A stretch of 64,000 bases of DNA from a virus: IMG/VR virus record IMGVR_UViG_3300035162_004754, positions 11,040 to 75,039 of that record. One strand, 5' to 3'. The translations under genes and the position numbers were made by a program. Shown here in pieces: positions 1,221 to 40,239 of this stretch. The notes under the pieces were generated by a model. That model had not been told where the DNA came from. It was given only the letters and a program-made list of their open reading frames with translations, and made no database searches. Within the stretch, counting starts at the first letter, position 1, and the number at the start of each line of letters is the position of its first letter.

Positions 1221-1694
1221 ATGAAACTGATAGCACATCGTGGTAACATTGATGGTCCGAATTTATTAAATGAAAATAATCCTGAACATATTGACAATAT
1301 AATCCTACAAGGTTATGATGTTGAAATTGATATTAGATTTGATGATGACACTGAAAAATTTTTTCTTGGGCATGACTATTCAAAATATCTAGTTAATTGG
1401 TCTTGGTTACATAAACATAAAGAAAAATTGTGGATTCATTGTAAAAATATTGAGGCACTCTATCAATTTTCTTCTAATCTTGATGGTTATAATTATTTTT
1501 GGCATGATAAAGATTCATACACTATGACTAGTAAAAAATATATTTGGTCTTATCCAGGAGAAAAATATAATTCCAAATCTATTATAGTGATGCCTGAGTT
1601 AAATTTATTTGAGTTTATTAATTGTGGATATATAGTTATGAAGCATTACAATTGTTTTGGTATTTGTAGTGATTATGTGGGTAAAATTAAATGA
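1221..1694 (+). CDS. GDPD/PLC-like phosphodiesterase
   Basis: IAHRGN, EN, DVEIDI, LGHD, WIHCKN, GICSDY. Confidence 0.7.
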   Translation: MKLIAHRGNIDGPNLLNENNPEHIDNIILQGYDVEIDIRFDDDTEKFFLGHDYSKYLVNWSWLHKHKEKLWIHCKNIEALYQFSSNLDGYNYFWHDKDSYTMTSKKYIWSYPGEKYNSKSIIVMPELNLFEFINCGYIVMKHYNCFGICSDYVGKIK

Positions 1695-3129: not shown

Positions 3130-3135
3130 ATTGAT

Positions 3136-6322: not shown

Positions 6323-6347
6323 CAAATAATTTAAACAGTGGTAGTAT
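6319..6347 (+). promoter_or_regulatory. Sigma70-type promoter
   Basis: TTGACA-17-TAGTAT with extended TG. Confidence 0.55.
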
Positions 6348-6371
6348 AAATTATAAAGTATTGGTAAATTT

Positions 6372-10505: not shown

Positions 10506-10509
10506 AAAA

Positions 10510-11358
10510 ATGAAAATCGCAATCTTAGGATCTGCTGGACAGATCGGTGCTTATCTAGAAGATTACTTAAAAGAGAAAGGTCATGATGTAATTGGTGTTG
10601 ATATAGTTGAAGGTCCGCAGAATGATCTTCGTGTAACACCAAACACTTATGTTGAAGGCATTATAAAGAATGCTGACTTTGTTTTCTTCTTGGCATTTGA
10701 TGTTGGTGGATCACATTACCTGAAGAAGTATCAACATACTTTTCAGTTCATTAACAACAATACTCGTATGATGGCAAATACTTTTGCCTTACTTGAGAAG
10801 TATCGGAAGAGATTTATATTTGCATCTTCACAGATGAGTAACATGTCTTACTCTCCATATGGTGTGATGAAGAGAGTTGGTGAACTTCATACCACTGCAC
10901 TCAAAGGACTTACAGTGAAGTTCTGGAATGTCTATGGTATTGAAAAAGATATGGAGAAGGCTCATGTCATCACTGATTTCATTCGTAGAGGATTTGAGGA
11001 GGGTGAATTTGAGATGATGACTGATGGCACTGAAGAACGTCAGTTCCTCTATGCTGAGGACTGTTGTGAGGCACTAGAGACTGTGATGGAAAACTTTACC
11101 GACTTCAAACCAGAAGATCCTCTCCATATTACGTCTTTTAGTTCTACTTCGATTAAAGATGTCGCTTCTATTATTCAGGGACAATTTAATTTGATTGGTA
11201 AAACAGTTAATATTAAACCTGGTCTTGCAAAAGATAGTGTTCAGATGGATAAGAGAAACGAAGCAGACACTTACATTATGGGATGGTGGATACCTAAAAC
11301 TACTATAGATAGAGGGATTGCAAAAGTTTTTGAGGATATGAAAGGTGATTGGATTTAA
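10510..11358 (+). CDS. NAD-dependent nucleotide-sugar epimerase/dehydratase
   Basis: GSAGQIG Rossmann motif, YGVMK (YxxxK), NVYG, RQFLYAED. Confidence 0.9.
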   Translation: MKIAILGSAGQIGAYLEDYLKEKGHDVIGVDIVEGPQNDLRVTPNTYVEGIIKNADFVFFLAFDVGGSHYLKKYQHTFQFINNNTRMMANTFALLEKYRKRFIFASSQMSNMSYSPYGVMKRVGELHTTALKGLTVKFWNVYGIEKDMEKAHVITDFIRRGFEEGEFEMMTDGTEERQFLYAEDCCEALETVMENFTDFKPEDPLHITSFSSTSIKDVASIIQGQFNLIGKTVNIKPGLAKDSVQMDKRNEADTYIMGWWIPKTTIDRGIAKVFEDMKGDWI

Positions 11359-22301: not shown

Positions 22302-22673
22302 ATGCCTCTCTACAATTCTCCTCAAGCCTATGTCTTCAACCTCCAAACAACAAGTTCTGCAGAAGCAAAAAGGTTATGGAGGTCAAAGATAAAGGAAGAG
22401 TGGGGATATGAGTGTGCCTATTGTGGATCGCAAGATAATCTTACGATAGATCATATTGTTCCAAAGGCAAAGGGTGGACCAGAGTTTACAAAAAATCTTT
22501 TGTGTGCCTGCCATGATTGTAATCAAGATAAAGCATATTCTCCTATGGAAGATTGGTATCTTTCGCAGGAGTTTTTTAATGTTGATCGATACGAGAAAAT
22601 TAAGAAGTGGATGGAACCAGAACCGGCAGTGAATCTTTATCGGTATGGTTCTAGAAGAAACAACCTATTATAA
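22302..22673 (+). CDS. HNH endonuclease
   Basis: [30 protein letters not shown]. Confidence 0.9.
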
Positions 22674-22732
22674 ATAAATGAAAAAGGACAGTATATACTG
22701 TTCTGAAACGGTACATACCGATAGAAGAATAG

Positions 22733-24958: not shown

Positions 24959-24962
24959 TCAA

Positions 24963-25304
24963 ATGGCAGTTGCAGCAGCAGCAGTAAATGTATTCCAAAC
25001 TGTTACAAATATAGTTGGAACAAGTACAGTCGGAATTTATACAGCACCCATTGGATATACGGGGGTTGTTCTTCTGGCACAAGTAACTAATATTGGGTCA
25101 TCGACTCAAACACTTAGTTTTGGTCATCGTAGAAGTGGAACAGATACTGAGATTGTTAAGAATTTAGCAATTCCGGCAAGTGACACAGCAAATTTATTGC
25201 CAGGAAAACTGGTTGTAGAAACTGGTGACATATTGACTACGGTTGGTAGCACTTCTACTGATCTTAAATTTTTATCGAGCATTCTGGAAACATCAAATCT
25301 CTAA
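24963..25304 (+). CDS. Small virion structural protein (beta-sandwich-like)
   Basis: IYTAP..AQVTN..KLVVETGD pattern; lies between fibre genes. Confidence 0.6.
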   Translation: MAVAAAAVNVFQTVTNIVGTSTVGIYTAPIGYTGVVLLAQVTNIGSSTQTLSFGHRRSGTDTEIVKNLAIPASDTANLLPGKLVVETGDILTTVGSTSTDLKFLSSILETSNL

Positions 25305-25321
25305 TATTTTAAAGTAGTAAA

Positions 25322-28300
25322 ATGGCATCACCAACACGGTTTCTTAGTGGTAGACAGCAAGAACAAAAAATTGGTATAGAAGGAAGTACTGATAACAAAA
25401 AAGTATTGGAGGTTGTCGGCCGAGTTGGTATTGGAACAACTATCTTTGAGACGAGAACAGAACTAGACGTTCGTGGTAATGCAGTTGTTAGTGGTATATT
25501 AACAGTAGGTGATATAGTAGTTTCATCTGGTGTTGGTGGTGTCTTTGCGATAGAGAAATTAAGGGTAACAGGTATATCAACTTTTGTTGATATAGGTACA
25601 TTTGAAAATAATCTTTTTGTTGGTGGTGATCTAGACGTAGATGGTCATACTGAACTCGACGATGTAAATGTATCTGGTGCCTCAACCTTCACTGGTGCCA
25701 TTGATGCCAATGGGTCTTTAGATGTTAATGGATTAACTGAACTCGACGATGTAAATGTATCTGGTGCCTCAACCTTCACTGGTGCAATTGATGCCAATGG
25801 TGATCTAGATGTTGATGGTCATACTGAACTTGATAACTTAAATGTATCAGGTGTTTCTACCTTCACTGGTGCCATTGATGCCAATGGGTCTTTAGATGTT
25901 GATGGATTAACTGAACTCGATGATGTAAATGTATCTGGTGCCTCAACCTTCACTGGTATTGGAACATTTTTAAGTGATCTTTTTGTTGCTGGTGACTTAA
26001 ATGTTGTTGGAGATTTAGTATTTGACTCATTCACCGCAAGAAAAATTACTGTAAATGAGAATTCCTTTCTTGGATTTGCGAGCGCTACTACATTAAATGT
26101 ATCAGGTGTTTCTACCTTCACTGGTGCCATTGATGCCAATGGGTCTTTAGATGTAGATGGTCATACCGAATTAGATGATCTTAATGTTTCCGGAGTATCC
26201 ACCTTTGCTTCTGCGATTGTCGGTTCTGCCGTAACAATAAGTTCTTCTGGTATTAACGTTGCTGCTGGTATTATTACGGGAACTCTTGATAATAATTTAA
26301 CACTTAATACTTCCGGAACTGGATTAAGTGGAATTGCAACTTATAATAATTCTGGTGTAGTTACATTTACAGTTGCATCAAATGCTACGGATGCTAATAC
26401 TGCAAGCACAATAGTTTCTCGTAATGGATCGGGTAACTTTAGTGCAGGAACAATCAGTGCTGATTTAACTGGTGTTGCTTCTACTGCAACTAAATTAGCA
26501 ACCGCAAGAACATTTGAATTAACCGGAGATGTTGTTGCTTCTCAGATTAGTTTTGATGGTACTGGTAATGTATCTTTAGCGGCAACAATCCAACCTAACC
26601 CAACAATTAGTGGAAATGTAACTATTGGTAATGACTTACAAGTTAATAATAATTTAAATGTATCAGGAAATATTACGGTTGGTGGAACTTCTGCCACATT
26701 ATTTACTGAAACATTAAGAGTAAAAGATGCTGATATTGTTCTTGGATTCACTACTAATTCTGCTGGTAATGAGGTTTCTACCGACACTACGGCAAATAAT
26801 GGTGGTATTGCGATTGCATCAACAGAAGGATCTCCAATCGTTAGTTTTAATGTTGATAATATTCCTTCCACATATAAAAATATTATGTGGTTTAAGACCA
26901 ATGCTTTTACTGGTCTGAATACCGATGCTTGGTTGACAAACTATGCATTTGGTGTTGGAACAACATCAATGTCGGCAGGCACTAAGTTTGCCGTTGGTAA
27001 TATTGAGGCAGACTTTGATGATATTACATCTGTCAGACATATTAAATCATCTGGTATTGTTACCGCATCAAGTTTTAGTGGTGATGGATCTGGATTGTTT
27101 GGAATTTCTGCTGGAACTGTTTTTGCAGAAAATTCTGCCAATCAATCTCAGACTATTCCTTTTTATGTCTCCACTGCAACTACTGATGTTGCCGGTGTTT
27201 CGACACAAAGTTTTGTATTCAATCCATCAACTAAAAGTCTTGGCATAGGAACAGATGCTCCGACATCAAATCTTCATGTTGAAGGTACATTGAATATATC
27301 AGGTGTCTCAACCTTTAGTAATAATATAGATGCTAATGGTGATCTAGACGTAGATGGTCATACTGAACTCGACGATGTAAATGTATCTGGTGCCTCAACC
27401 TTCACTGGTGCCATTGATGCCAATGGGTCTTTAGATGTTAATGGATTAACTGAACTCGATGATGTAAATGTATCTGGTGCTTCTACTTTTGCTGGTGCTG
27501 CCGACTTTAATGGTGATTTAGATGTTGATGGTCATACTGAACTAGACAACTTAAATGTATCGGGTGTTTCTACCTTTGCTTCTGCAGTTAATATCAATTC
27601 CGATTTAGATGTAGACGGACATACCGAACTTGATAACGTAAATGTATCAGGTGTTTCTACTTTTAGTGATGATGTAAGATTTGTTGGTGCTGCTAATACT
27701 GATGTTGTATGGGATAAGTCTGCAAATTCATTAAACTTTGAAGATTATGCAAAAGCAACATTTGGTGATGGTGGAGATTTAACTATTACTCATAGTAGTA
27801 ATCAAAGTTCTATTTCTGAATCTGGTGGTAATGGACTCGAAGTTAAGAGTGTTAAGGTTACTATTACTCCTAATGGTAGCACAGAAAAAATGGCAGAGTT
27901 CAATGCCAATTCTTCGGTAGAGCTCTACTTTGATGACTCTAAGAAATTAGAAACTACCGGGTATGGTATAACTGTTACTGGCGATGTTAATACTTCTAAT
28001 AATATTAGTATTGCTGGTGTTTCTACTTTTGCTGGTGCCATTGATGCCAATGGGTCTTTAGATGTTGATGGTCATACTGAACTAGACAACTTAAATGTAT
28101 CGGGTGTTTCGACCTTTGCTGGTGCAATTGATGCCAATGGGTCTTTAGATGTAGATGGACATACTGAACTTGATAACGTAAATGTATCAGGTGTTTCTAC
28201 CTTCACTGGTGCAATTGATGCCAATGGGTCTTTAGATGTTGATGGTCATACTGAACTTGATAACGTAAATGTATCAGGAGTTTCGACTTTTGCTGGTAGT

Positions 28301-31300
28301 ATAGATGCTAATGGGTCTTTAGACGTAGATGGTCATACTGAATTGGATGACCTCAATGTATCAGGTGTTTCGACCTTTGCTTCTGCGATTGTTGGTTCTG
28401 CCGTAACAATAAGTTCTTCTGGTATCAATGCTGCTACTGGTATTATAACTGCATCTTCTTTAGATGCTGCAATTTCCGAATGGGTATTAGGTGCCGATGG
28501 AACAGATAATTATACGTTTAGTGGACCTGGATTTACCGGTGCCGAAAATGATCCTACAATTTATGTGGTAAGAGGTCAAAAATATAACTTTGAAAATAAA
28601 ATGGGTGCCCATCCATTTAGAATTCAAAGCGATCCAAATGGATCTACAGGAACGCAATATAATGATGGAATAACTAATAATGATGTATCAAATGGAACTC
28701 TAGTATGGGATGTTCAGTTTGATGCTCCAGAAATTCTTTATTATCAATGTACATCTCATGCTAACATGGGGGGTAGAATTTACACAAGAAGTGATGCTGA
28801 AGATTCGATAAGTTTCGAAACTATTATTGTAGGTGGTGGTACTACAATTACTGGATCTGGTATCAATGCTCCTACTGGTATTATAACTGCTTCTACTTTC
28901 AGTGGTTCTGGTGCATCATTAACTTCAATTCCTAATGGAGCACTAACAAACTCTAGTATTGCTATTGGTGGAGTAACTGTATCTCTTGGTGGTACTGATG
29001 CAACACCGGCATTTGACTTAAGTGATGCTACTGATTATCCTTATACATCATTGACGGGTATTACTACCGAAATCTTAGGTGATACTACTCCACAGTTGGG
29101 TGGGAACTTAGATCTTAATAGTAAGTTTATAACCGGAACAGGTGGTATTAATGTTTCTGGTGTTGTAACTGCTACTACTTTCTCTGGTTCTGGAGCATCA
29201 CTTACTAATATTCCTAATGGAGCACTAACAAACTCTAGTATTGCTATTGGTGGAGTAACTGTATCTCTTGGTGGTACTGATGCAACACCAGCATTTGACT
29301 TAAGTGATGCTACTGCTTATCCTTATACATCATTGACGGGTATCACTACCGAAATCTTAGGTGATACTACTCCACAGTTGGGTGGGAACTTAGATCTTAA
29401 TAGTAAGTTTATAACCGGAACTGGTGGAGTCAATGTTACTGGTGTTGTAACTGCTACTTCTTTTGTTGGTAATGTAACTGGTGTTGCTTCTACTGCAACT
29501 AAATTAGCAACCGCAAGAACATTTGAATTAACCGGAGATGTTGTTGCTTCTCAGATTAGTTTTGATGGTACTGGTAATGTATCTTTAGCGGCAACAATCC
29601 AACCTAATAGTGTTGCTCTTGGTGGTGACACTACTGGTGATTATGTTGAGTCCATTAGTGGAACCGGAAATCAAATAACAGTAAGTAGTGGGACAGGAGA
29701 AGGTTCAACACCTGTAATTTCGATTCCAAATAACCCAACACTTCCGGGAACAACTGTTACTGTTACAACTGACTTACAAGTCAACCGCAATTTAAATGTT
29801 ACTGGGAACGTAACAATTGGTGGTACTTCTGCTACATTATTTACTGAAACTTTAAAGATTAGTGACCCGGATATTATTGTTGGATTTAGAACTGATGCTG
29901 GTGGTAATGATATTTCAAATGACACTACTGCAAGTCATGGTGGTATTGCCGTTGCATCAACAGAAGGAAGTCCCATAGTAAGTTTTGTTGGTGGTGGTGG
30001 AACAGTTCCTGTCACATATAAAAAGATCTTTTGGTTTGAGTCTGGTGCTTTTACTGGACTTGCTACTGATGCTTGGTTGACAAATTATGCATTTGGTGTT
30101 GGAACAACATCAATGTCGGCAGGCACTAAGTTTGCCGTTGGTAATATTGAGACAGACTTTGATGATATTAAGTCTGTTAGGCACATCAATTCATCGGGTG
30201 TTGTAACTGCCACTACTTTCTCTGGTTCTGGTGCATCATTAACTTCAATTCCTAATGGAGCACTAACAAACAATAGTGTTAATTATGGTGGAGTAACTGT
30301 ATCTCTTGGTGGTACTGATGCAACACCAGCATTTGACTTGAGTGATGCTACTGCGTATCCCTATACTAGTCTTACTGGTATTACTACAGAAATTGTAGGT
30401 GATACTACTCCACAGTTAGGTGGAAACTTAGATCTTAATAGTAAGTTTATAACCGGAACTGGTGGAGTCAATGTTACTGGTGTTGTAACTGCCACTTCTT
30501 TCAGTGGTTCTGGTGCTAGTTTAACTGGAATTACTGCTGCTTCCATAGGTGCTTTGTCTGGTCTTACTATAAGAGAAGAAGGATCTGTAGCTGGATCTGC
30601 AAGTAGTGTTGGTGATATTAATTTTGTAAGTAGTAATTTAACAGCAACAGCATCTGGTATTGGTGCTACCGTTACATTATCAGATACCCCAACATTTACT
30701 AGCACTGTTATTGGAACTGGGGTTACTATTAATTCTTCCGGTATTAATGCCACTGGAGTTATAACTGCCACATCATTTAGTGGTTCTGGTGCAAACCTTA
30801 CCAACATTCCTGCTCCAGATGTAGTTACTGGTGATAAGTATAATACTGGAATTACAACATCAATTTATGTTTCAATTACTGGTGGTATTGGAACGGCAGT
30901 GTCCGGACTTACTACAGTTGCAGCAAACAATGATATCTTTATTGGTCCTGGAATTGGATATTCATTCCCATCAACTGCGGGTAAGAGTTATATAATTGAA
31001 TCTATTCATGTAACAAACATTTATAATACGCACCTTTATCTCACTTCAAGACATGATTTTAATGGTGGTGAAAATGTTCCAACTGCACAAAGAGTCATAG
31101 TTCCCTATCAAGGTGCTTTGGAAGTCCTAGAAGAACCAATCATTGCGAAACCATCAGATATTTTAAGATTTCAGGCATTTGCTGGTATAGGAGAAACTAG
31201 TGGAGTAGGACCAGAAGCAGTTGGAGTTAATAATGGATTGGATTCATTCATAACTTATTCTGAAAAAACTGATACTAATTTTATTGGAACTGGAAAAACG

Positions 31301-31627
31301 GTTGTTACACCAGCTGGAACAGAACTGTTCACTTCAAATACAAACCCATCTGTCATTCAATCAATTCGATTATGTAATTATGATTTGGACTTTGATGTTG
31401 ATGCATCAGTATCCATTTATCGAGGAGGAAGTGTTGGAGGTATTCTAACCACAGGTGTCAGACAAGGATACTTGGTATATAATTTAACAGTGCCCAAGAA
31501 TAGTGTAATTGAGATTTTAGAGAGACCAAAGTATCTTGCTGCAAATGACACTGTTGTTGTAGGGATTGCCGGAACCACTCTTACAAATAGTCTTTCTTCT
31601 ACTTTATCCGGTAAATATATAACATAG
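25322..31627 (+). CDS. Long tail fibre-like protein with internal repeats (2101 aa)
   Basis: Gly/Thr/Ser-rich; 29-aa and 94-aa repeats; VGIGT and DTTPQLGGNLD fibre motifs. Confidence 0.8.
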   Translation: MASPTRFLSGRQQEQKIGIEGSTDNKKVLEVVGRVGIGTTIFETRTELDVRGNAVVSGILTVGDIVVSSGVGGVFAIEKLRVTGISTFVDIGTFENNLFVGGDLDVDGHTELDDVNVSGASTFTGAIDANGSLDVNGLTELDDVNVSGASTFTGAIDANGDLDVDGHTELDNLNVSGVSTFTGAIDANGSLDVDGLTELDDVNVSGASTFTGIGTFLSDLFVAGDLNVVGDLVFDSFTARKITVNENSFLGFASATTLNVSGVSTFTGAIDANGSLDVDGHTELDDLNVSGVSTFASAIVGSAVTISSSGINVAAGIITGTLDNNLTLNTSGTGLSGIATYNNSGVVTFTVASNATDANTASTIVSRNGSGNFSAGTISADLTGVASTATKLATARTFELTGDVVASQISFDGTGNVSLAATIQPNPTISGNVTIGNDLQVNNNLNVSGNITVGGTSATLFTETLRVKDADIVLGFTTNSAGNEVSTDTTANNGGIAIASTEGSPIVSFNVDNIPSTYKNIMWFKTNAFTGLNTDAWLTNYAFGVGTTSMSAGTKFAVGNIEADFDDITSVRHIKSSGIVTASSFSGDGSGLFGISAGTVFAENSANQSQTIPFYVSTATTDVAGVSTQSFVFNPSTKSLGIGTDAPTSNLHVEGTLNISGVSTFSNNIDANGDLDVDGHTELDDVNVSGASTFTGAIDANGSLDVNGLTELDDVNVSGASTFAGAADFNGDLDVDGHTELDNLNVSGVSTFASAVNINSDLDVDGHTELDNVNVSGVSTFSDDVRFVGAANTDVVWDKSANSLNFEDYAKATFGDGGDLTITHSSNQSSISESGGNGLEVKSVKVTITPNGSTEKMAEFNANSSVELYFDDSKKLETTGYGITVTGDVNTSNNISIAGVSTFAGAIDANGSLDVDGHTELDNLNVSGVSTFAGAIDANGSLDVDGHTELDNVNVSGVSTFTGAIDANGSLDVDGHTELDNVNVSGVSTFAGSIDANGSLDVDGHTELDDLNVSGVSTFASAIVGSAVTISSSGINAATGIITASSLDAAISEWVLGADGTDNYTFSGPGFTGAENDPTIYVVRGQKYNFENKMGAHPFRIQSDPNGSTGTQYNDGITNNDVSNGTLVWDVQFDAPEILYYQCTSHANMGGRIYTRSDAEDSISFETIIVGGGTTITGSGINAPTGIITASTFSGSGASLTSIPNGALTNSSIAIGGVTVSLGGTDATPAFDLSDATDYPYTSLTGITTEILGDTTPQLGGNLDLNSKFITGTGGINVSGVVTATTFSGSGASLTNIPNGALTNSSIAIGGVTVSLGGTDATPAFDLSDATAYPYTSLTGITTEILGDTTPQLGGNLDLNSKFITGTGGVNVTGVVTATSFVGNVTGVASTATKLATARTFELTGDVVASQISFDGTGNVSLAATIQPNSVALGGDTTGDYVESISGTGNQITVSSGTGEGSTPVISIPNNPTLPGTTVTVTTDLQVNRNLNVTGNVTIGGTSATLFTETLKISDPDIIVGFRTDAGGNDISNDTTASHGGIAVASTEGSPIVSFVGGGGTVPVTYKKIFWFESGAFTGLATDAWLTNYAFGVGTTSMSAGTKFAVGNIETDFDDIKSVRHINSSGVVTATTFSGSGASLTSIPNGALTNNSVNYGGVTVSLGGTDATPAFDLSDATAYPYTSLTGITTEIVGDTTPQLGGNLDLNSKFITGTGGVNVTGVVTATSFSGSGASLTGITAASIGALSGLTIREEGSVAGSASSVGDINFVSSNLTATASGIGATVTLSDTPTFTSTVIGTGVTINSSGINATGVITATSFSGSGANLTNIPAPDVVTGDKYNTGITTSIYVSITGGIGTAVSGLTTVAANNDIFIGPGIGYSFPSTAGKSYIIESIHVTNIYNTHLYLTSRHDFNGGENVPTAQRVIVPYQGALEVLEEPIIAKPSDILRFQAFAGIGETSGVGPEAVGVNNGLDSFITYSEKTDTNFIGTGKTVVTPAGTELFTSNTNPSVIQSIRLCNYDLDFDVDASVSIYRGGSVGGILTTGVRQGYLVYNLTVPKNSVIEILERPKYLAANDTVVVGIAGTTLTNSLSSTLSGKYIT
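25627..28385 (+). repeat. Clusters of 87-bp (29-aa) coding repeats, DLDVDGHTELDxVNVSGxSTFTGAIDANG
   Basis: Near-identical DNA copies in clusters around 25.6-26.2, 27.3-27.7 and 28.0-28.4 kb. Confidence 0.9.
28895..30496 (+). repeat. Three 282-bp (94-aa) coding repeats
   Basis: Copies start at about 28895, 29177 and 30215 (TFSGSGASLTxIPNGALT...). Confidence 0.9.
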
Positions 31628-31643
31628 TATTATTGAATTTTTT

Positions 31644-32225
31644 ATGTGTCAATTGAAAGAAGGTATTATTTTTCCGACTAATTTTTATACTGCTGATATT
31701 TTCAATGAGTATCAAAATCAAAAGTATAAAAATTTTTTAACTGAACTTTCTAATAGAACAGAGGGTGAAAGAAGAAGTAATCGTAATGGTTGGCAGAGTG
31801 ATACTTTTTTGTGGAAACAAGATATTTTTAAACCACTTTTGGATGAAGCACTTAGTGCCACACAAATGATTGCCAAGAGATTGTCTAATAAAGAACTTCC
31901 ACAAATGGTTGTGAGGGCAATGTGGGGAAATATCAATCCAAAAGGTGGATTTAATTTCACTCATGTTCATCCTTCTGGGTGGTTGAGTGGAGTTTATTAT
32001 ATACAATTACCTGAAGCAAATAATGAAATAGTTTTTCAGGATCCAAGACCTGCAAGAATGATGGACTTTCAAAGAAGTTCTTTGATTACGGATGAATATT
32101 TTTCACATCATCCTAAGGTGGGAGAACTACTTTTATTTCCTTCTTGGTTGCCTCACTTTGTTTCACCAAATACATCGGATCAAAATAGAATTTCAATTTC
32201 ATTTAATGTTGAGTTAATAGTATAG
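31644..32225 (+). CDS. 2OG-Fe(II) oxygenase (TIGR02466-like)
   Basis: HVHP..LSGVYY, FQDPR, LLFPSWLPHFV, RISISFN. Confidence 0.88.
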   Translation: MCQLKEGIIFPTNFYTADIFNEYQNQKYKNFLTELSNRTEGERRSNRNGWQSDTFLWKQDIFKPLLDEALSATQMIAKRLSNKELPQMVVRAMWGNINPKGGFNFTHVHPSGWLSGVYYIQLPEANNEIVFQDPRPARMMDFQRSSLITDEYFSHHPKVGELLLFPSWLPHFVSPNTSDQNRISISFNVELIV

Positions 32226-32290
32226 TATTATTACTTTGTTAAATAGTATTGGAACATTTGTTTTTTATGTTCATTACCAAGGGTAAATAG

Positions 32291-34120
32291 ATGGCACAAG
32301 GAATTTTTGGTCTTGATAGAGTATATAAAAAACAAGTTCAAAATGTAAAAAACGACAACTTTGATAGTTGGCCAGAGAGTGCCACTTATGGTTACTTTGG
32401 TGGTGGTTATAATAATCCATATCTTTCGACAGTAGACCGTATTGATTTCTCGAATGAAACTACATCGGCACCAGGAAATAATCTAACTCAAGCAAGATAT
32501 GGTTTAGCAGCAGTCTCAAGTAGTTCTTATGGTTACTTTGGTGGTGGATATTTCTCACCACCAAATACTTATGTTACCACAGTAGACCGTCTTGATTTCT
32601 CCAATGAAACTTTCTCGGCACCAGGTAATAATTTAACTCAAGCAAGAGAAGGTTTAGCAGCAGTCTCAAGTAGTTCTTATGGATATTTTGCTGGTGGATT
32701 TACTTTCCCTCCTGCAAGTTGGAAAGATACAGTAGACCGTATTGATTTCTCCAATGAAACTACATCGGCACCAGGTAATGATATACCTTCAGGAAGACAG
32801 GGTTTAGGAGCAACCCAAAGTAGTTCTTATGGTTACTTTGGTGGTGGTGGTAGTTCTGTTGTATCATTAGTAGACCGTATTGATTTCTCGAATGAGACTA
32901 CATCGGCACCAGGTAATAATTTATCTCAAGCAAGATATAACTTAGCAGCAACCTCAAGTAGTTCTTATGGTTACTTTGGTGGTGGTGAAACTATACCACC
33001 TTATGTTACCACAGTAGACCGTATTGATTTCTCGAATGAAACTACATCGGCACCAGGTAATAATCTACCTCAAGCAAGAGGAAGATTAGCAGCAGTCTCA
33101 AGTAGTTCTTATGGTTACTTTGGTGGTGGTACTACTCCACCTTTTGCTGCCACAGTAGACCGTATTGATTTCTCGAATGAAACCACATCGGCACCAGGTA
33201 ATAATCTAACTCAAGCAAGAGAACAACTAGCAGCAGTATCCGGAGGAGCATCATACCGAATAAAAGGTTCGAGAACTTATGGTTACTTTGGCGGTGGTGA
33301 GGCTCCACCTTATGTTGCCACAGTAGACCGTCTTGATTTCTCGAATGAGACTACATCGGCACCAGGAAATAATCTAACTCAAGCAAGAAATGGTTTAGCA
33401 GCAGTCTCAACTAGTTCTTATGGTTACTTTGGTGGTGGTTTTGCTCCTACAGGTTATGTTACCACAATAGATCGTATTGATTTCTCGAATGAAACTTTCT
33501 CGGCACCAGGAAATAATCTAACTCAAGCAAGATATGGTTTAGCAGCAGTCTCAAGTAATTCTTATGGTTACTTTGGTGGTGGTGAGACTCCACCTTATGT
33601 TGACACAGTAGACCGTCTTGATTACTCTAATGAAACTACATCGGCACCAGGTAAAAATCTATCTGCAGTAAGAAGATCTTTAGCAGCAGTCTCAAGTAAT
33701 TCTTATGGTTACTTTGGTGGTGGTTTTACTCCACCTTATGTTGCCACAGTAGACCGTATTGATTTCTCTAATGAAACCACATCGGCACCAGGTAATAATC
33801 TAACTCAAGCAAGATCTGGTTTAGCAGCAGTCTCAAGTAGTTCTTATGGATACTTTGGTGGTGGACTTGCTCCACCTCTTGTTACCACAGTAGACCGTCT
33901 TGATTTCTCTAATGAAACCACATCGGCACCAGGTAATAATTTATCTCAAGCAAGATATAACTTAGCAGCAGTCTCAAATAATTCTTATGGTTACTTTGGT
34001 GGTGGTTCATCCCCAACACGGTCTACAGTAGACCGTATTGATTTCTCGAATGAGACTACATCGGCACCAGGTAATAATTTACCTCAAGCAAGAGAAAGTT
34101 TAGCAGCAGTCTCCAACTAA
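32291..34120 (+). CDS. Kelch-like repeat protein 1 (6+6 YGYFGGG repeats), putative adhesin
   Basis: 12 repeats of about 47-50 aa split by linker SGGASYRIKGSRT. Confidence 0.75.
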   Translation: MAQGIFGLDRVYKKQVQNVKNDNFDSWPESATYGYFGGGYNNPYLSTVDRIDFSNETTSAPGNNLTQARYGLAAVSSSSYGYFGGGYFSPPNTYVTTVDRLDFSNETFSAPGNNLTQAREGLAAVSSSSYGYFAGGFTFPPASWKDTVDRIDFSNETTSAPGNDIPSGRQGLGATQSSSYGYFGGGGSSVVSLVDRIDFSNETTSAPGNNLSQARYNLAATSSSSYGYFGGGETIPPYVTTVDRIDFSNETTSAPGNNLPQARGRLAAVSSSSYGYFGGGTTPPFAATVDRIDFSNETTSAPGNNLTQAREQLAAVSGGASYRIKGSRTYGYFGGGEAPPYVATVDRLDFSNETTSAPGNNLTQARNGLAAVSTSSYGYFGGGFAPTGYVTTIDRIDFSNETFSAPGNNLTQARYGLAAVSSNSYGYFGGGETPPYVDTVDRLDYSNETTSAPGKNLSAVRRSLAAVSSNSYGYFGGGFTPPYVATVDRIDFSNETTSAPGNNLTQARSGLAAVSSSSYGYFGGGLAPPLVTTVDRLDFSNETTSAPGNNLSQARYNLAAVSNNSYGYFGGGSSPTRSTVDRIDFSNETTSAPGNNLPQARESLAAVSN

Positions 34121-34168
34121 ATAAGAATACTTATATTATTAAACAAAACTATAATCTTATAATTGTAA

Positions 34169-36028
34169 ATGGCAATATTTTCTCTCAACGAAGTCAGAAC
34201 AGAACAGATAAAAAATGTTGCAAACGACAACTTTGAGAGTTGGCCGGAGAGTGCTACTTATGGTTACTTTGGTGGTGGACTTGCTCCACCTGCCGATTAT
34301 GTTACCACAGTAGACCGTATTGATTTCTCTAATGAAACCACATCGGCACCAGGAAATAATCTAACTCAAGCAAGAGGTTATTTAGCAGCAGTCTCAAGTA
34401 ATTCTTATGGTTACTTTGGTGGTGGATATTTCTCACCACCAAATACTTATGTTACCACAGTAGACCGTCTTGATTTCTCGAATGAGACTACATCGGCACC
34501 AGGAAATAATCTAACTCAAGCAAGATATGGTTTAGCAGCAGTATCAAGTAGTTCTTATGGTTATTTTGGTGGTGGTTTTGCTCCACCTTATGTTACCACA
34601 ATAGACCGTCTTGATTTCTCTAGTGAGACTACATCGGCACCAGGTAATAATCTACCTCAAGCAAGAAGTGGTTTGGCAGCAGTCTCAACTAGTTCTTATG
34701 GTTACTTTGGTGGTGGTACTGCACCACCTTATGTTACCGCAATAGATCGTATTGATTTCTCGAATGAAACTTTCTCGGCACCAGGTAATAATCTAACCCA
34801 AGCAAGAGGTTATTTAGCAACAGTTTCAACTAGTTCTTATGGTTACTTTGGTGGTGGTTCTTCTCCACCTAATGTTACCACAGTAGACCGTATTGATTTC
34901 TCTAATGAAACTACATCGGCACCAGGTAATAATTTATCTCAAGCAAGAAATGGTTTAGCAGCAGTCTCAACTAGTTCTTATGGTTACTTTGGTGGTGGTT
35001 TTACTCCACCTTATGTTACCACAATAGACCGTCTTGATTTCTCTAGTGAGACTACATCAGCACCAGGTAATAATTTACCGGCAGGAAGACGTGCTTTAGC
35101 AGCAGTATCCGGAGGAGCATCATACCGAATAAAAGGTTCGAGAACTTATGGTTACTTTGGTGGTGGTGATACTGCGCCTGGAGCACCTGGTAGTGTAGCA
35201 ACAGTAGACCGTATTGATTTTTCGAATGAGACTACATCGGCACCAGGAAATGATCTAACTCAAGCAAGACGTTCGAACGCAGCAGTCTCAAGTAATTCTT
35301 ATGGTTACTTTGGTGGTGGTTTTGCTCCACCTGGTAGTGTAGCAACAGTAGACCGTATTGATTTTTCTAATGAAACTGTATCGGCACCAGGTAAGGATCT
35401 ACCTGTAGCAAACCAGGCTTTAGCAGCAGTCTCAAGTAGTTCTTATGGTTACTTTGGTGGTGGTTTTATTCCCAGCTCGACTGCTGTAGTAAACCGTTTT
35501 GATTTTTTTAGTGAAACTTTCTCGGCACCAGGAAATGATCTAACTCAAGCAAGAGCTAGTTTAGCAGCAGTCTCAAATAGTTCTTATGGTTACTTTGGTG
35601 GTGGTTCACCAAAACTTACTACAGTAGATCGTATTGATTTCTCGAATGAAACTGTATCGGCACCGGGTAATAATCTACCTTTAGGAAGAAATGGTTTAGG
35701 AGCAGTCTCAGGTAACTCTTATGGTTACTTTGCTGGTGGAGAAAATTATGTCAGTCCATCTACTAGCTATCGTGACGATGTATTTCGTATGGATTTCTCG
35801 AATGAAACTTTTGCAGGAATCGTTCTTGCAAATAATTTATCCGCAAAGAAAGCTAGTTTAGCAGGAACCTCAAACAATTCTTATGGTTACTTTGGTGGTG
35901 GTTCGGGTCTTCCTGTACCTAATTATCTTGCCACAGTAGATCGTATTGATTTCACTACTCATATTTGTTCAGCAACAGGAAATAATTTACCTCAGGCCAG
36001 ATTTGGTTTAGCAGCAGTATCCAACTAA
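34169..36028 (+). CDS. Kelch-like repeat protein 2 (6+6 repeats)
   Basis: Same architecture and linker; CTAAATA late motif upstream. Confidence 0.75.
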   Translation: MAIFSLNEVRTEQIKNVANDNFESWPESATYGYFGGGLAPPADYVTTVDRIDFSNETTSAPGNNLTQARGYLAAVSSNSYGYFGGGYFSPPNTYVTTVDRLDFSNETTSAPGNNLTQARYGLAAVSSSSYGYFGGGFAPPYVTTIDRLDFSSETTSAPGNNLPQARSGLAAVSTSSYGYFGGGTAPPYVTAIDRIDFSNETFSAPGNNLTQARGYLATVSTSSYGYFGGGSSPPNVTTVDRIDFSNETTSAPGNNLSQARNGLAAVSTSSYGYFGGGFTPPYVTTIDRLDFSSETTSAPGNNLPAGRRALAAVSGGASYRIKGSRTYGYFGGGDTAPGAPGSVATVDRIDFSNETTSAPGNDLTQARRSNAAVSSNSYGYFGGGFAPPGSVATVDRIDFSNETVSAPGKDLPVANQALAAVSSSSYGYFGGGFIPSSTAVVNRFDFFSETFSAPGNDLTQARASLAAVSNSSYGYFGGGSPKLTTVDRIDFSNETVSAPGNNLPLGRNGLGAVSGNSYGYFAGGENYVSPSTSYRDDVFRMDFSNETFAGIVLANNLSAKKASLAGTSNNSYGYFGGGSGLPVPNYLATVDRIDFTTHICSATGNNLPQARFGLAAVSN

Positions 36029-36069
36029 ATATGGGTATAAATATATAAAATTGGTATTTTATAATTTTT

Positions 36070-36903
36070 ATGACTAACAATTATGAAGCGATTGCACTTG
36101 CATCATCTACGGAAGTTTTGGATGATAAAAATGAATTCATGTTCAAAGTTCTCAATGAAGCAAATCGATGGATTGAAAGTGAAGTAGAACTTGCACAAGG
36201 TCGTTCAGATTTTCAAATTGAAAAGTTTATTGTTCATGATAGTTTTACTATTCCATCTGCATTTAAATCTGCTTTAATTAATCGTAAGAGTGTGGCAGAA
36301 AATCTTCTTTCAAAAATTATTGATGCAAAGAAAGAAGCAAGAGAGTTTCATTATAAGTGGGAAGGAAAGGATAAGACACAACCAATCTGGTGGAAGACCC
36401 GTGATGGTGGTGAAGAATTATGTTGGTATGATATTGATGAGTTTCATTTTCATCGTATGCTTGAGGGACTTAATCACGGTTTCAAAGCATCGGTCCAAGA
36501 ACTTGAATGTTTTGATAAATTGATTAGTCGTTTGATTGAACTGAATGGTGGTAAATTAGTAAGCAAAGAACAATTTGATGCAGACCAACCAGATTATTGG
36601 GAGAGAAGACTTTCGAATCAATCTATTGATGATTTGTTTGCCGCAAAAACTGGTGTGAATGCAGGTAATATTCGTTCTATGAGAAGAGCAAGTGCTCCTA
36701 CTGTATTAGGAAATGATGTAAATAGAACTAAAGGATCATTTGGTGATCCAACTAATCCTCTTGACTTTCTGAATAAACTTCAAGAGAATGTTTCTGCCGG
36801 TATTTCTGAAATTACTGGTATGGATCAAAAAATTCTTTCATCTATTGAGGAAGAACAAAAACAATTTAATGGATCATTATTTAACCAAGAATTAAAACAG
36901 TAA
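36070..36903 (+). CDS. Hypothetical helical protein within the kelch cluster
   Basis: 277-aa ORF with ATAAATA late motif upstream. Confidence 0.7.
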   Translation: MTNNYEAIALASSTEVLDDKNEFMFKVLNEANRWIESEVELAQGRSDFQIEKFIVHDSFTIPSAFKSALINRKSVAENLLSKIIDAKKEAREFHYKWEGKDKTQPIWWKTRDGGEELCWYDIDEFHFHRMLEGLNHGFKASVQELECFDKLISRLIELNGGKLVSKEQFDADQPDYWERRLSNQSIDDLFAAKTGVNAGNIRSMRRASAPTVLGNDVNRTKGSFGDPTNPLDFLNKLQENVSAGISEITGMDQKILSSIEEEQKQFNGSLFNQELKQ

Positions 36904-36909
36904 AATCTT

Positions 36910-38811
36910 ATGGCTATCATAGGAGACGTATTTGGATTAACTTCTATTTACGAGAGACAAGTAGAAAATATTGCAAACGACAACTTTGAGAGTTGGCCGG
37001 AGAGTGCTACTTATGGTTACTTTGCTGGTGGTTCTAATCCACCTTCGTCTCCTTCTTATGTTGCCACAGTAGATCGTATTGATTTCTTGAATGAAACTGC
37101 ATCACTACCAGGTAATGATTTACCTTCAGGAAGAAAAAGTTTCGGAGAAGTCTCAAGTAGTTCTTATGGTTACTTTGGTGGAGGTTATGATGGTTCGAAC
37201 CATATTAATACAATAAACCGTCTTGATTTTTCGAATGAAACTTTTTCGGCACCAGGTAATAATTTATCTCAAGTAAGACAGGGTTTAGGAGGAACTCAAA
37301 GTAGTTCTTATGGTTACTTTGCTGGTGGATCAGATCCAGCTGTGTCTCCATCTTATGTTGCCACAGTAGATCGTATTGATTTCTCTAGTGAAACAATGTC
37401 AACACCAGGTAATAATTTACCTTCAGGAAGAAAGGATATTGGAACATCTCAAAGCAGTTCTTATGGTTACTTTGGTGGTGGTTATGATGGTTCGAACCAT
37501 ATTAATACAATAAACCGTCTTGATTTCTCTAGTGAAACTTTTTCGGCACCGGGTAATAATCTATCTCAAGTAAGACAGGGTTTAGCAGCAACCCAAAGTA
37601 GTTCTTATGGTTACTTTGGTGGTGGATCTGATCCAGCTGTGTCTCCATCTTATGTTGCCACAGTAGATCGTATTGATTTCTTGAATGAAACTGCATCACT
37701 ACCAGGTAATAATTTACCTTCAGGAAGAAAGGATATTGGAACAGTCTCAAGTAGTTCTTATGGTTACTTTGGTGGAGGTTATGATGGTTCGAACCATATT
37801 AATACAATAAACCGTCTTGATTTTTCGAATGAAACTTTTTCGGCACCAGGTAATAATTTATCTCAAGTAAGGCAGGGTTTAGGAGGAGTATCCGGAGGAG
37901 CATCATACCGAATAAAAGGATCAAGAACTTATGGTTACTTTGGTGGTGGTGATACTGCGCCTGGAGCACCTGGTAGTGTAGCAACAGTAGACCGTATTGA
38001 TTTCTCGAATGAGACTACATCGGCACCAGGTAATGATCTAACTCAAGCAAGACGTGCGTCCGCAGCAACCGAAAGTAGTTTTTATGGATACTTTGGTGGT
38101 GGTTTTGCTCCACCTAACGTGGACACAATAGACCGTATTGATTTCTCTAATGAAACTGTATCGGCACCAGGTAAGGATCTACCTGTAGCAAACCAGGGTT
38201 TAGCAGCAGTCTCAAGTAGTTCTTATGGTTACTTTGGTGGTGGTGCTTCTCCCAGCTCGACTGCCGTAGTAAACCGTTTTGATTTCTCTAGTGAAACTTT
38301 CTCGGCACCAGGAAATGATCTAACTCAAGCAAGAAATAATTTAGCAGCAGTCTCAAATAGTTCTTATGGTTACTTTGGTGGTGGTGGTTATCCTGAAAAA
38401 TCAACAGTAGATCGTATTGATTTCTCGAATGAAACTGTATCGGCACCGGGTAATAATCTACCTTCGGGGAGACATGGTTTAGGAGCAGTCTCAGGTAACT
38501 CTTATGGTTACTTTGCTGGTGGAGAAAATTATGTCAGTCCATCTACTAGCTATCGTGCTGATGTATTTCGTATGGATTTCTCGAATGAAACTTTTGCAGG
38601 AATCGTTGCTGCAAATAATTTACCCGTGAAGAAATTTGGTACAGCAGGAACCTCAAGTAATTCTTATGGTTACTTTGGTGGTGGTAATGGTCTTCCTTCA
38701 CCCAGTTATCTTGCCACAGTAGATCGTATTGATTTCACTACTCATATTTGTTCAGCAACAGGAAATAATCTACCTCAAGCAAGAAGTAGTTTAGCAGCAG
38801 TATCAAACTGA
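36910..38811 (+). CDS. Kelch-like repeat protein 3 (6+6 repeats)
   Basis: Same architecture; first six repeats are a two-repeat unit tripled. Confidence 0.75.
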   Translation: MAIIGDVFGLTSIYERQVENIANDNFESWPESATYGYFAGGSNPPSSPSYVATVDRIDFLNETASLPGNDLPSGRKSFGEVSSSSYGYFGGGYDGSNHINTINRLDFSNETFSAPGNNLSQVRQGLGGTQSSSYGYFAGGSDPAVSPSYVATVDRIDFSSETMSTPGNNLPSGRKDIGTSQSSSYGYFGGGYDGSNHINTINRLDFSSETFSAPGNNLSQVRQGLAATQSSSYGYFGGGSDPAVSPSYVATVDRIDFLNETASLPGNNLPSGRKDIGTVSSSSYGYFGGGYDGSNHINTINRLDFSNETFSAPGNNLSQVRQGLGGVSGGASYRIKGSRTYGYFGGGDTAPGAPGSVATVDRIDFSNETTSAPGNDLTQARRASAATESSFYGYFGGGFAPPNVDTIDRIDFSNETVSAPGKDLPVANQGLAAVSSSSYGYFGGGASPSSTAVVNRFDFSSETFSAPGNDLTQARNNLAAVSNSSYGYFGGGGYPEKSTVDRIDFSNETVSAPGNNLPSGRHGLGAVSGNSYGYFAGGENYVSPSTSYRADVFRMDFSNETFAGIVAANNLPVKKFGTAGTSSNSYGYFGGGNGLPSPSYLATVDRIDFTTHICSATGNNLPQARSSLAAVSN

Positions 38812-38842
38812 CACTAAATAGAAATACTTATATTATTATGAT

Positions 38843-39505
38843 ATGAATGATATACTTAGAAATGTATTGATACAACCAAAAGTTGTATCAAAAGAAGGAA
38901 TTGATTTCTTAGTTAATCATGCAAAAAATGCACCCAAAGATAAAATGGGTGTATTTGATGGAGAGAAAGCAAATCAAAACAAAGAAGGTCATCCATCAAG
39001 AGTTGATTTGAATGTAAGAAATGTAGATTGCTCTGATACTTCAAAAATTATTGAAGAGATTAAAGAACTTTATAATAATATTGTTCATCACGTAATCAAT
39101 CCTTTTTATGAGTTTAAAATAAGAGATAGTGAGTCTCCTCAGTTACTCATATATGAACCAGGAGGACACTATAAATCTCATTATGATGCAGTATCAAGGT
39201 GGAAAAACCCTGATGGATCTATTATCTGGAAGAAGTCTGTAGATAGAGATTTATCAACTATTCTTTTTTTAAATGATGATTTTGAAGGTGGAGAATTTGT
39301 ATTCCCAGATCTCAGAGTACGTATCAAACCAGAACCAGGTTTATTAGTTGCCTTTCCATCTTCACAGTTTTATCTCCATAAAGTAGAACCAGTAATTTCA
39401 GGAACTCGTTATGCAATGGTAAACTGGATGACCGTTCAAGGTATGCCTACTAAAGCGGAGATTGATAAAGAGATAGAAGATAAATACAATATAAATGTGT
39501 ACTGA
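38843..39505 (+). CDS. 2OG-Fe(II) oxygenase, prolyl-4-hydroxylase-like
   Basis: YKSHYD, LFLNDDFEGGEF, HKVEPVISGTRY. Confidence 0.9.
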   Translation: MNDILRNVLIQPKVVSKEGIDFLVNHAKNAPKDKMGVFDGEKANQNKEGHPSRVDLNVRNVDCSDTSKIIEEIKELYNNIVHHVINPFYEFKIRDSESPQLLIYEPGGHYKSHYDAVSRWKNPDGSIIWKKSVDRDLSTILFLNDDFEGGEFVFPDLRVRIKPEPGLLVAFPSSQFYLHKVEPVISGTRYAMVNWMTVQGMPTKAEIDKEIEDKYNINVY

Positions 39506-39510
39506 TAAAA

Positions 39511-40239
39511 ATGTCTCAATTAATTAAACACTTTTTAGTGGATAGAGATACTGGAGAATGGATAAAGGGTAAAATTAGAGGGTATATATTTCCAAACTTA
39601 AAGGGATTGGAAATTGTTTATCGTTTAACTGATGTAAATGGAGATCATATCTGCCTATCAAAAGTTCCAGAGTATTTTGAGTATTCGAAAACTGTAACTC
39701 CAAGTGTCTTAACTGAATATCAAAATGATTCAAATATTACAGTAGTAAGTTCTACTGAAAAGCAGGTTGAAGAACCTATTCTAAACGAAGAAACTGGAGA
39801 ACCAACAGGTGAAACAACTACAGTAACTTTGCATGATGTAACTTATAGAGAAGCATATACTATTGTAGAAAACGATGGACTCAAAATTTTAACTCAAGAA
39901 CAATGGAACACTGAGATTTCTAATTATGATGCAAGACAAACTGAAAAAAGATATAGTGAAATAAGAATAGTTAGAGATGAAGTTTTGAAAGATACTGATT
40001 GGATGGTTACAAAGACAACAGAGAGTGGGAGTAATTTATCAGATGAATTTAAGAATTGGAGAACCACTCTAAGAGATTTACCATCTGTTGGAATTACAAC
40101 AGACACTTTCCCAGCAACTCCAGATTCAATTCAATTTGATCAGAATATAACTAAAGACTATTCCCAAAAATTAAGATCTATTGTATTGATTAATGATACT
40201 CTTCCTGCATTGCCTGAAGAGGATTTAGGTGGTGAGTAA
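39511..40239 (+). CDS. Tail fibre assembly chaperone-like protein
   Basis: C-terminal IRIVRDEVLKDTDW...WRTTLRDLP motif. Confidence 0.75.
   Translation: MSQLIKHFLVDRDTGEWIKGKIRGYIFPNLKGLEIVYRLTDVNGDHICLSKVPEYFEYSKTVTPSVLTEYQNDSNITVVSSTEKQVEEPILNEETGEPTGETTTVTLHDVTYREAYTIVENDGLKILTQEQWNTEISNYDARQTEKRYSEIRIVRDEVLKDTDWMVTKTTESGSNLSDEFKNWRTTLRDLPSVGITTDTFPATPDSIQFDQNITKDYSQKLRSIVLINDTLPALPEEDLGGE

Follow-up and report, generated by a model that had tools for sequence, protein, structure and literature searches.

A window of 64,000 nucleotides (nt), part of the 75-kb IMG/VR viral contig IMGVR_UViG_3300035162_004754 (positions 11,040 to 75,039) from an uncultured marine cyanophage, contains three closely spaced genes for tandem Kelch proteins, termed genes 1, 2 and 3 (K32, K30 and K34). 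Each product is, in the predicted structure, a pair of six-bladed Kelch propellers behind a short leader. The family is the fastest-changing part of otherwise near-identical genomes, and gene comparisons demonstrate that whole propellers have been swapped. The proteins are probably virion-borne, exchangeable adhesins that bind the host, a reading that draws on their sequence and genomic setting. Comparisons were made with 72 related IMG/VR loci, the closest subset comprising 17 contigs. Loci related to the window carry L numbers, L001 being Synechococcus phage S-SKS1 (NC_020851).

Architecture and predicted fold

Parsing of open reading frames (ORFs) and repeats revealed the same plan in all three genes (Table 1). 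Leaders of 32, 30 and 34 amino acids (aa) in genes 1, 2 and 3, with the motif (I/V)F(G/S)L ... NDNF(D/E)SWPES, are followed by exactly 12 YGYF(G/A)GG repeats per protein, in the order six, linker SGGASYRIKGSRT, six. The linker is identical across the three proteins, and all 55 full-length family genes have exactly 12 in-frame blades. Tandem Repeats Finder reported periods of 141-150 nt, together with a 297-nt period present three times (89% matches) in the first half of gene 3; the N-propeller of this gene consists of three copies of a two-blade unit (ABABAB). The 89-nt cores of the repeats differ at scattered positions (78-98% identity). The YFSPPNTY repeat forms blade 2 in both gene 1 and gene 2 (93% nt identity), and in 90-nt windows genes 2 and 3 are 83-99% identical over their second halves, compared with 67-87% over their first halves. 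Thus, the succession of leader, six repeats, linker and six repeats, the repeat common to genes 1 and 2, and the closely similar second and differing first halves of genes 2 and 3, all proposed in an initial annotation made from the DNA alone, were confirmed.

The proteins belong to the Kelch superfamily by profile scores above cut-off, a predicted closed propeller of six blades and a GG/aromatic/Arg signature. Pfam PF24681 (Kelch) matched the three proteins with 59.6, 58.8 and 66.5 bits (cut-off 50; gene 1, E 3.6e-16), and PF13415 matched genes 1 and 2 with 45 and 32 bits (cut-off 22). The PHROG family phrog_19111, of 'unknown function', matched all three over most of the profile (E 3.7e-259, 1.7e-232 and 5.6e-217). 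No BTB or BACK domain was matched in the Pfam search; the proteins are not BTB-Kelch ubiquitin-ligase adaptors and share with them the propeller alone.

An AlphaFold2 model of the gene 1 protein, based on 55 homologues, had a mean predicted local distance difference test score (pLDDT) of 87.4, with low confidence only in the leader and linker. DSSP assigned 24 strands to each half of the model in a 3 + 4x5 + 1 pattern, corresponding to six four-stranded blades. This count is consistent with Keap1-type closure, in which the last strand A would complete blade 1. The best Foldseek matches in the PDB were six-bladed Kelch domains (Keap1, KLHL2/3/12/17 and the designed SAKe6), with target-normalised template modelling (TM) scores of 0.85-0.93 per half and a root-mean-square deviation of ~2 Å over ~285 residues, at a sequence identity of just 16-21%. 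The structure prediction called for initially thus yielded two six-bladed propellers per protein.

A profile search against the PDB returned Kelch domains exclusively. In the alignments, YGYFGGG corresponds to Kelch strand B and the GG doublet, the next loop to the B-C loop, VDRIDF to strand C, and QAR to the conserved Kelch Arg preceding strand A. Each repeat is shared between two consecutive blades, giving strands B, C and D to the first and strand A to the second. Across the 36 repeats of the three proteins, YGYF is present in every one, GGG varies only at its first position (Gly in 31), and the Arg is kept in 32; the usual strand-D Trp of Kelch repeats is replaced by T, F or V.

The proteins resemble the Kelch propellers of Keap1 and KLHL2/3/12/17/20 (PF24681, PF13415, PF01344) in fold, GG doublet and Arg before strand A, in repeats of 44-56 residues running B-C-D-A, in the number of blades, and in a ligand face made of B-C and D-A loops. 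Unlike these, they have tandem propellers, no BTB/BACK or partner domain and a phage-specific leader of 30-34 residues. Their blades are far more uniform than those of cellular Kelch proteins, down to the codons, and their top face is hypervariable. Longer relatives of ~940 aa (L031 626-3457 and 4292-7105), 1217 aa (L061 10001-13651) and 1280 aa (L066 1237-5076) are made of additional Kelch repeats, which probably form three or four tandem propellers. A search of the long variants (856-1280 aa) for a virion-docking domain found only more Kelch repeats and one MAM match of sub-threshold quality.

Variable face, uniform scaffold and exchanged propellers

Amino-acid entropy across the 36 repeats peaked at 2-3.3 bits in alignment columns 8-20, after GGG, and 46-47, after QAR; most scaffold columns had 0-1 bit. 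By profile alignment, one variable site corresponds to the B-C loop and the other to the two residues that end the D-A loop. Because the antiparallel four-stranded blade topology puts the B-C and D-A loops together, both sites fall on one face. In Keap1, the ligand pocket is built from D-A and B-C loops (PMC12314335). The initial annotation had called for a check that both variable sites lie on one face, which the model and the profile alignment bear out for the Kelch ligand face; the concentration of variation that it saw in the post-GGG loop and the post-QAR dipeptide held for the entropy peaks, but variation is not limited to these sites, other D-A loop positions (x in NETxS, SxP, GNx and LxQA) being moderately variable across the family. 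The turns of the opposite face, SSSS and FSNET, are nearly invariant. Note that D-F-S-N-E-T is kept in the blades (for example at 32447-32467), the tripeptide being N-E-T in 28 of the 36 repeats and S-E-T or T-H-I otherwise. It sits in the C-D turn, which belongs to the conserved face and not to that of the variable loops, and may be a structural or modification site.

Scaffold codons are position-specific and often the rare codons of the phage (384 blades, 17 closely related contigs). TAC was found in 361 of 384 blades compared with 11% genome usage, CGT in 374 of 379 (19%), GAC in 275 of 324 (12%) and TTC in 322 of 377 (20%). Synonymous codon identity among blades was 0.80-0.84, compared with 0.50 expected from codon usage, in agreement with the near-identical scaffold DNA described in the initial annotation. 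The values within a gene (0.835), between paralogues (0.824) and between genomes (0.802) were nearly equal; the uniformity is therefore family-wide and neither private to a genome nor an effect of recent duplication. Within-genome concerted evolution as its sole cause is ruled out by the same values.

In relatives, the flanking genes have 90-100% protein identity to those of the window and the leaders mostly 83-100%, whereas propellers behind the same leader have only 56-78% in close relatives. The 64 propellers of the 17 contigs formed 61 clusters at 90% identity, and N-N, C-C and N-C comparisons had an equal median identity of ~0.6. Stable non-mosaic orthologues, initially named as contrary evidence, were not seen; only leaders and flanks were stable. 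Among 372 blades, there were 118 distinct post-Arg dipeptides, rich in S, G, Y, R, N and D. The B-C loops vary in length (seven residues in 140 of the 372), with a recurrent x-x-P-P-x-V-x pattern and Pro making up 19% of loop residues. Since 350 of these loops are distinct and 335 are singletons, they are not drawn from a small reshuffled set.

In eight independent close propeller pairs, nonsynonymous divergence (pN) was 0.172 at the post-Arg sites, 0.109 in the B-C loop and 0.027 elsewhere, and synonymous divergence (pS) was 0.125, 0.116 and 0.058, respectively. At the codon level, this pattern shows at least a complete lack of constraint on the variable face, with the scaffold under purifying selection. 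Positive selection on the loops is not claimed, their pN/pS being ~1.

The exchange of propellers is visible as steps in identity. Window and L015 are 100% identical in DNA through o277, the gene preceding K34, and the K34 leader, and then 55-90% identical from blade 1 on. The N-propeller of K34 in the window is 93-100% DNA-identical to the N-propeller of K30 in L008; leader and C-propeller differ. Within the window, the C-propellers of genes 2 and 3 are sisters (91% nt identity), and their N-propellers are not. The cleanest swap of a single propeller distinguishes L033 and L045, whose islands are 98.5-99.9% identical: codons 1-320 of their K30 genes (leader, N-propeller and linker) are 100% identical, followed by 45-67% identity to the stop. 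These identity steps thus place the crossovers at three conserved junctions, namely the leader end, the linker and the 3' end.

Tree comparisons gave the same picture. For groupings named after the trees had been viewed, approximately unbiased (AU) tests rejected, for the N-propellers, a clade of genes 2 and 3 (p 3.4e-6) and, for the C-propellers, a clade of gene 3 and L008 K30 (p 6.4e-8). In the tree of C-halves, leader type was distributed near randomly (19 changes compared with 18.1 when shuffled). As judged from the genes, whole propellers have been swapped between paralogous loci of one genome (gene 2 C with gene 3 C) and between phages (K34 N of the window with K30 N of L008; L033 compared with L045), and blades can be amplified or converted within a propeller, as in the ABABAB arrangement of gene 3. 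Of the recombination-driven library envisaged in the initial annotation, the exchange of whole propellers and the mosaic genes stand; its loop repertoire was not created by recombination alone. Recombination as sole cause of the loop diversity is not supported, and mutation together with selection or lacking constraint would also be needed.

Proposed function and origin of the diversity

We favour the view that the tandem Kelch proteins are virion-borne adhesins, because of the fibre-gene context, the conserved N-terminus followed by variable distal domains, the parallel with T-even gp38, and the virion Kelch protein of phage CBB. The Kelch genes lie between two fibre genes (741 and 2101 aa) and a tail-fibre-assembly-like gene. 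A conserved N-terminus with variable, exchangeable distal domains is the usual layout of phage receptor-binding proteins. The near restriction of the family to phages and, weakly, the late-promoter-like motifs before the fibre gene and o277 point to the same role. The proteins would be late-expressed parts of the virion, docked by the leader on the tail-fibre or baseplate apparatus, and would bind host surface structures through the variable faces of their propellers. The three loci together would form an exchangeable adhesin set, with a logic like that of T-even gp38.

In T-even gp38/gp37, hypervariable segments lie between conserved glycine-rich motifs, and recombination there swaps specificity (Trojet et al. 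2011, PMC3157838). The window proteins resemble gp38 in combining conserved N-terminal attachment with a variable specificity part, in having hypervariable segments split by Gly-rich motifs, in being encoded at the end of a tail-fibre cluster beside a fibre-assembly gene, and in the swapping of modules between related phages. The likeness is one of design and not of membership, fold and sequence being unrelated (no gp38 PHROG or Pfam match). Moreover, the 12 repeats provide 24 variable sites per protein, there are three paralogous loci, and the unit of exchange is the six-blade propeller. Binding and virion location are proven for gp38 and are proposals for the window proteins. Phage vB_PcaM_CBB encodes several Kelch paralogues (CBB_550, CBB_552 and CBB_554), and CBB_552 was found in virions by mass spectrometry (PMC5259590). 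The likeness here consists of phage Kelch propellers in several paralogues; CBB lacks a detectable close relation (tblastn with gene 1 against 50,697 phage records matched S-SKS1 only), and tandem double propellers, hypervariability and cassette exchange are not described for its Kelch proteins. Literature on S-SKS1, on Kelch proteins in cyanophages and on Kelch receptor-binding proteins of phages yielded no description of the present family. Thus, the new part appears to be an undescribed tandem-Kelch scaffold, in a known kind of system, the modular, recombination-exchanged host-recognition proteins of phages.

A more far-reaching version of the adhesin reading is offered tentatively. Three docking leaders, each with two interchangeable Kelch propellers, might constitute a combinatorial binder platform that uses no dedicated enzyme. 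As parts of the same tentative proposal, the 12 B-C loops and 12 post-Arg dipeptides of each protein, being rich in Ser, Gly, Tyr, Arg, Asn and Asp and unique in nearly every blade, might act like the complementarity-determining regions of antibodies, and the codon-uniform scaffold might turn general recombination into cassette exchange. The platform may be further tuned by the co-encoded hydroxylase, glycosyltransferase and sulfotransferase enzymes. If true, phages would have a host-recognition device of a new class, and binder engineers a repeat-protein scaffold that is ready to use. The constant Kelch frame with 24 short variable sites on one face of each protein may in any case interest protein engineers, the designed symmetric Kelch propeller SAKe6 being among the closest structures. 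Marine Synechococcus phages shape global primary production and, to our knowledge, their host recognition is poorly known. If the Kelch proteins are adhesins, they would allow the host range of uncultured cyanophages to be approached directly from sequence.

Several points weigh against the adhesin reading and the evidence of exchange behind it. Virion location and receptor binding, and with them the host-range diversification proposed in the initial annotation, are deduced from the tail-fibre context, a published S-SKS1 proteome was not found, and the leader has a pLDDT of 43-55 in the AlphaFold2 model and matched no known docking domain. The AU groupings were chosen post hoc, as stated above. 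The count of 12 nonsynonymous and 0 synonymous changes at the post-Arg sites between the recent duplicates gene 2 C and gene 3 C comes from one pair only and is marginal (about p 0.05), and the loop pN/pS of ~0.9-1.4 is as compatible with neutral loops free of constraint as with positive selection. The mosaics come from assemblies of short metagenome reads. Over positions 31600-39600, runs from several studies contain flanks identical to those of the window, but Logan contigs from four runs break into pieces of 100-900 nt within the repeats and do not confirm the long-range structure; their 'joints' are many and indistinguishable from assembly noise. A search of metagenome contigs for the exact 196-nt N/C junction of gene 3 gave 0 matches, the window's own record perhaps being excluded. 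Finally, since the island holds hydroxylase, sulfotransferase and glycosyltransferase-linked genes, the propellers may be substrates or carriers of modification and not direct binders.

This last point can be extended to an explanation that we regard as unlikely but worth weighing, namely that the propellers mainly carry hydroxyproline, glycans or sulfate on xPP loops or N-E-T turns. Enzymes encoded nearby, namely the oxygenases, the sulfotransferase and o277 with its glycosyltransferase link, would add the groups, which in turn would make host contact or provide shielding, and loop variation would alter modification sites and not a protein binding surface. Each Kelch gene is indeed paired with an enzyme-like gene (oxy193 with K32, Sulfotransfer_1 with K30 in most relatives, o277 with K34), a prolyl-4-hydroxylase (P4H)-type oxygenase follows the last one, in L063 and L066 o277 forms part of a fusion with a GT4 glycosyltransferase, and the window begins with a nucleotide-sugar and glycosyltransferase island; the recurrent Pro-Pro pattern of the loops points the same way. 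However, this explanation relies on neighbouring genes of putative chemistry, the sulfotransferase is absent from the window and some relatives and therefore dispensable, and the most variable sites, the post-Arg dipeptides, are not Pro, Ser or Thr motifs. Carrying such groups would also be compatible with an adhesin function and does not exclude it.

Less probable still is an intracellular role, with the proteins acting as non-virion Kelch adaptors that capture host defence or regulatory proteins in an arms race, as poxvirus Kelch proteins do. Kelch propellers are classic protein-protein adaptors, extreme allelic diversity is typical of counter-defence genes too, the leader could be a short interaction peptide, and gene context is what places the proteins in the virion. 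Against this, the genes lie inside a conserved fibre module in all layouts, Pfam searches detected neither BTB/BACK nor another effector domain, the stable, distinct leaders of the three paralogues suggest three fixed docking sites, and CBB has its Kelch protein in the virion.

As to the origin of the diversity, the general homologous recombination of a T4-like phage would act on the near-identical scaffold DNA to exchange propellers, and the same process would keep the scaffold codons uniform. The S-SKS1 annotation lists T4-type gp32 and gp59 among its replication and recombination genes. Loop diversity would arise from ordinary mutation, with diversifying or frequency-dependent selection maintaining it. 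Homologous recombination of the plain kind, acting on repeats with uniform codons, could thus take the place of dedicated diversity generators.

Diversification of the loops by a targeted mutator, whether retrohoming as in diversity-generating retroelements (DGRs), an invertase/shufflon or another device, is very improbable. It would account for variation confined to two short sites per repeat amid near-identical DNA, and the roughly twofold raised pS of the loops is what mutagenesis untargeted by codon would give. However, neither reverse transcriptase (PF00078) nor serine or tyrosine recombinases (PF00239, PF00589) were found in the window's own contig, complete S-SKS1 or two complete relatives, while control genomes were matched; the initial annotation had held that none was needed. 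Loop substitutions comprised all six classes (38% transitions) and were accompanied by changes in loop length. Adenine was involved in 56% of loop differences compared with 59% in the scaffold, indicating no adenine bias, no template repeat or invariant donor copy was seen, and the Kelch genes are all on one strand (+). In seven sets of contigs from different metagenomes, collinear islands were 99.7-100% identical over 1.8-9 kb. The diversity is therefore allelic diversity at the population level and not per-generation hypermutation, and the idea of an on-line generator was not borne out. DGR-type receptor-binding proteins, such as Mtd of Bordetella phage BPP-1, share with the present system a constant scaffold and variation on the ligand surface of a tail-associated protein; they differ in their reverse transcriptase, template repeat and adenine-specific changes, in the stability of haplotypes between samples seen here, and in fold. 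DGR targets mostly have C-type lectin folds.

That the mosaics and part of the diversity are short-read chimeras between near-identical repeats of co-occurring strains is equally hard to credit: all relatives are metagenome contigs, the Logan contigs fragment in the repeats with many 'joints', and the S-SKS1 reference has broken Kelch ORFs, but the seven contig sets are collinear, all 55 full-length genes retain their 12 in-frame blades, the repeats differ at scattered positions, and the L033 and L045 haplotypes were each recovered more than once.

Island layout, relatives and neighbouring genes

Among 50,697 phage records searched by tblastn with gene 1, S-SKS1 (genus Llyrvirus) was the sole match. 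It has 81% nt identity to the window over parts of the region and the same island layout. Its direct homologues SWZG_00001, SWZG_00287, SWZG_00289 and SWZG_00291 (E down to 1e-259, 61-81% identity) are annotated as hypothetical, with no function or description, and, unlike the window genes, as short pieces (168-465 aa). In the record (201,855-208,007), the Kelch genes are split into annotated pieces of 168, 465 and 231 aa, separated by unannotated gaps, and the linear record starts within a Kelch gene (SWZG_00001, partial). These fragmented annotations probably reflect frameshifts or assembly errors in the repeats. Metagenomes contain at least 1,466 protein clusters of the family at 90% identity, every one unnamed or 'hypothetical', and the exact gene 3 protein (P0013) is encoded on a second contig. 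A search of 185,579 prokaryote species genomes returned one family match, L077 (CAZXGO010000276.1, 2.6 kb), in a Chitinophagales metagenome-assembled genome bin; this short contig is probably a mis-binned viral fragment. The tandem-Kelch family is essentially phage-restricted.

The order of the island is giant fibre, 2-oxoglutarate (2OG) oxygenase, K32, [K30], o277, K34, [K30], P4H-type oxygenase and fibre-assembly-like gene, where K30 takes one of two alternative positions in relatives, before o277 or after K34. The P4H-type oxygenase has 86-98% aa identity in close relatives.

Table 1. Positions of the Kelch genes, their parts and neighbouring features (window numbering unless an L locus is given)
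Feature	Position	Strand	Remarks
Tail-fibre protein, 741 aa	22733-24958	+	phrog_17885 tail fiber, E 2e-223
ORF, 113 aa	between the 741-aa and 2101-aa fibre genes	+	within fibre block 22733..31627
Repeat-rich fibre / baseplate-wedge-like protein, 2101 aa	25322-31627	+	PHROG phrog_1469, phrog_8215 baseplate wedge
2OG-Fe(II) oxygenase (PF13759; oxy193)	31644..32225	+	directly upstream of gene 1; conserved left flank
Kelch gene 1 (K32)	32291..34120	+	609 aa; leader 32291-32386 (32 aa)
Gene 1 parts	N-propeller (blades 1-6) 32387-33238; linker SGGASYRIKGSRT 33239-33277; C-propeller (blades 7-12) 33278-34117	+	followed by stop
Kelch gene 2 (K30)	34169..36028	+	619 aa; leader 34169-34258 (30 aa)
Gene 2 parts	N-propeller 34259-35107; linker 35108-35146; C-propeller 35147-36025	+	
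TATAAATA, T4-type late-promoter-like motif	36036..36043	+	27 nt upstream of o277
o277, conserved gene, 277 aa	36070..36903	+	always ~10 nt upstream of K34 gene; synteny in 20+ loci
Kelch gene 3 (K34)	36910..38811	+	633 aa; leader 36910-37011 (34 aa)
Gene 3 parts	N-propeller 37012-37890; linker 37891-37929; C-propeller 37930-38808	+	
Prolyl-4-hydroxylase-type 2OG-Fe(II) oxygenase (PF13640)	38843..39505	+	directly downstream of last Kelch gene
Tail-fibre-assembly-like gene	39511..40239	+	phrog_4912, E 9e-76; weak Pfam Phage_tail_APC match; right flank
TATAAATA, second copy	22669-22676		precedes tail-fibre gene
Sulfotransfer_1 gene copies in relatives	L011 9164-9991; L014 11855-12682; L021 1778-2605; L006 5076-5903; others		

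The o277 product is 65-100% identical even where the Kelch genes are only 42-60% identical. In L063 (15264-16994) and L066 (5777-7528), it forms the C-terminal half of a 577-584-aa fusion with a GT4 glycosyltransferase as the N-terminal half. The o277 model is mostly helical, with a helix-hairpin-helix core weakly like prefoldin beta. No match was found in Pfam, PDB sequences or the ESM Atlas, and Foldseek gave no match at E <= 0.001 and just one prefoldin-like hairpin at E ~0.8. One metatranscriptome contig covers the o277 of a relative, which is not proof of expression.

In most relatives, a Sulfotransfer_1 gene (276 aa, PF00685 E 3e-17; SWZG_00288 in S-SKS1) lies 3-4 nt upstream of K30. It is missing from the window, L005 and L008, and L018 and L017 have only a 37%-identical copy elsewhere. 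A low-GC (~30%) block at window positions 1691-11358 encodes glycan-pathway proteins: a GDP-mannose 4,6-dehydratase (PF16363, E 7e-143), a second epimerase/dehydratase, a GT6-family glycosyltransferase, a GT1-like protein, a sugar C-methyltransferase, an FkbM methyltransferase and a weak SseK/NleB-like match (E 3e-4). This block may feed glycosylation of the virion or the host surface.

The late-promoter-like motif TATAAATA has 3 matches in the window compared with 6.75 expected by chance, so that only the positions of the copies are suggestive and the evidence is weak. An HNH endonuclease gene (phrog_2214, E 2.5e-33; window 22302-22676) ends at the copy just before the tail-fibre gene. A homing-type nuclease beside a hypervariable module could stimulate local recombination. 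The C-terminus of the 2101-aa fibre (window 30400-31627) has only 58-74% aa identity to close relatives, with an identical codon at 94-98% of the shared residues. This block-mosaic pattern suggests a second exchangeable host-recognition segment.

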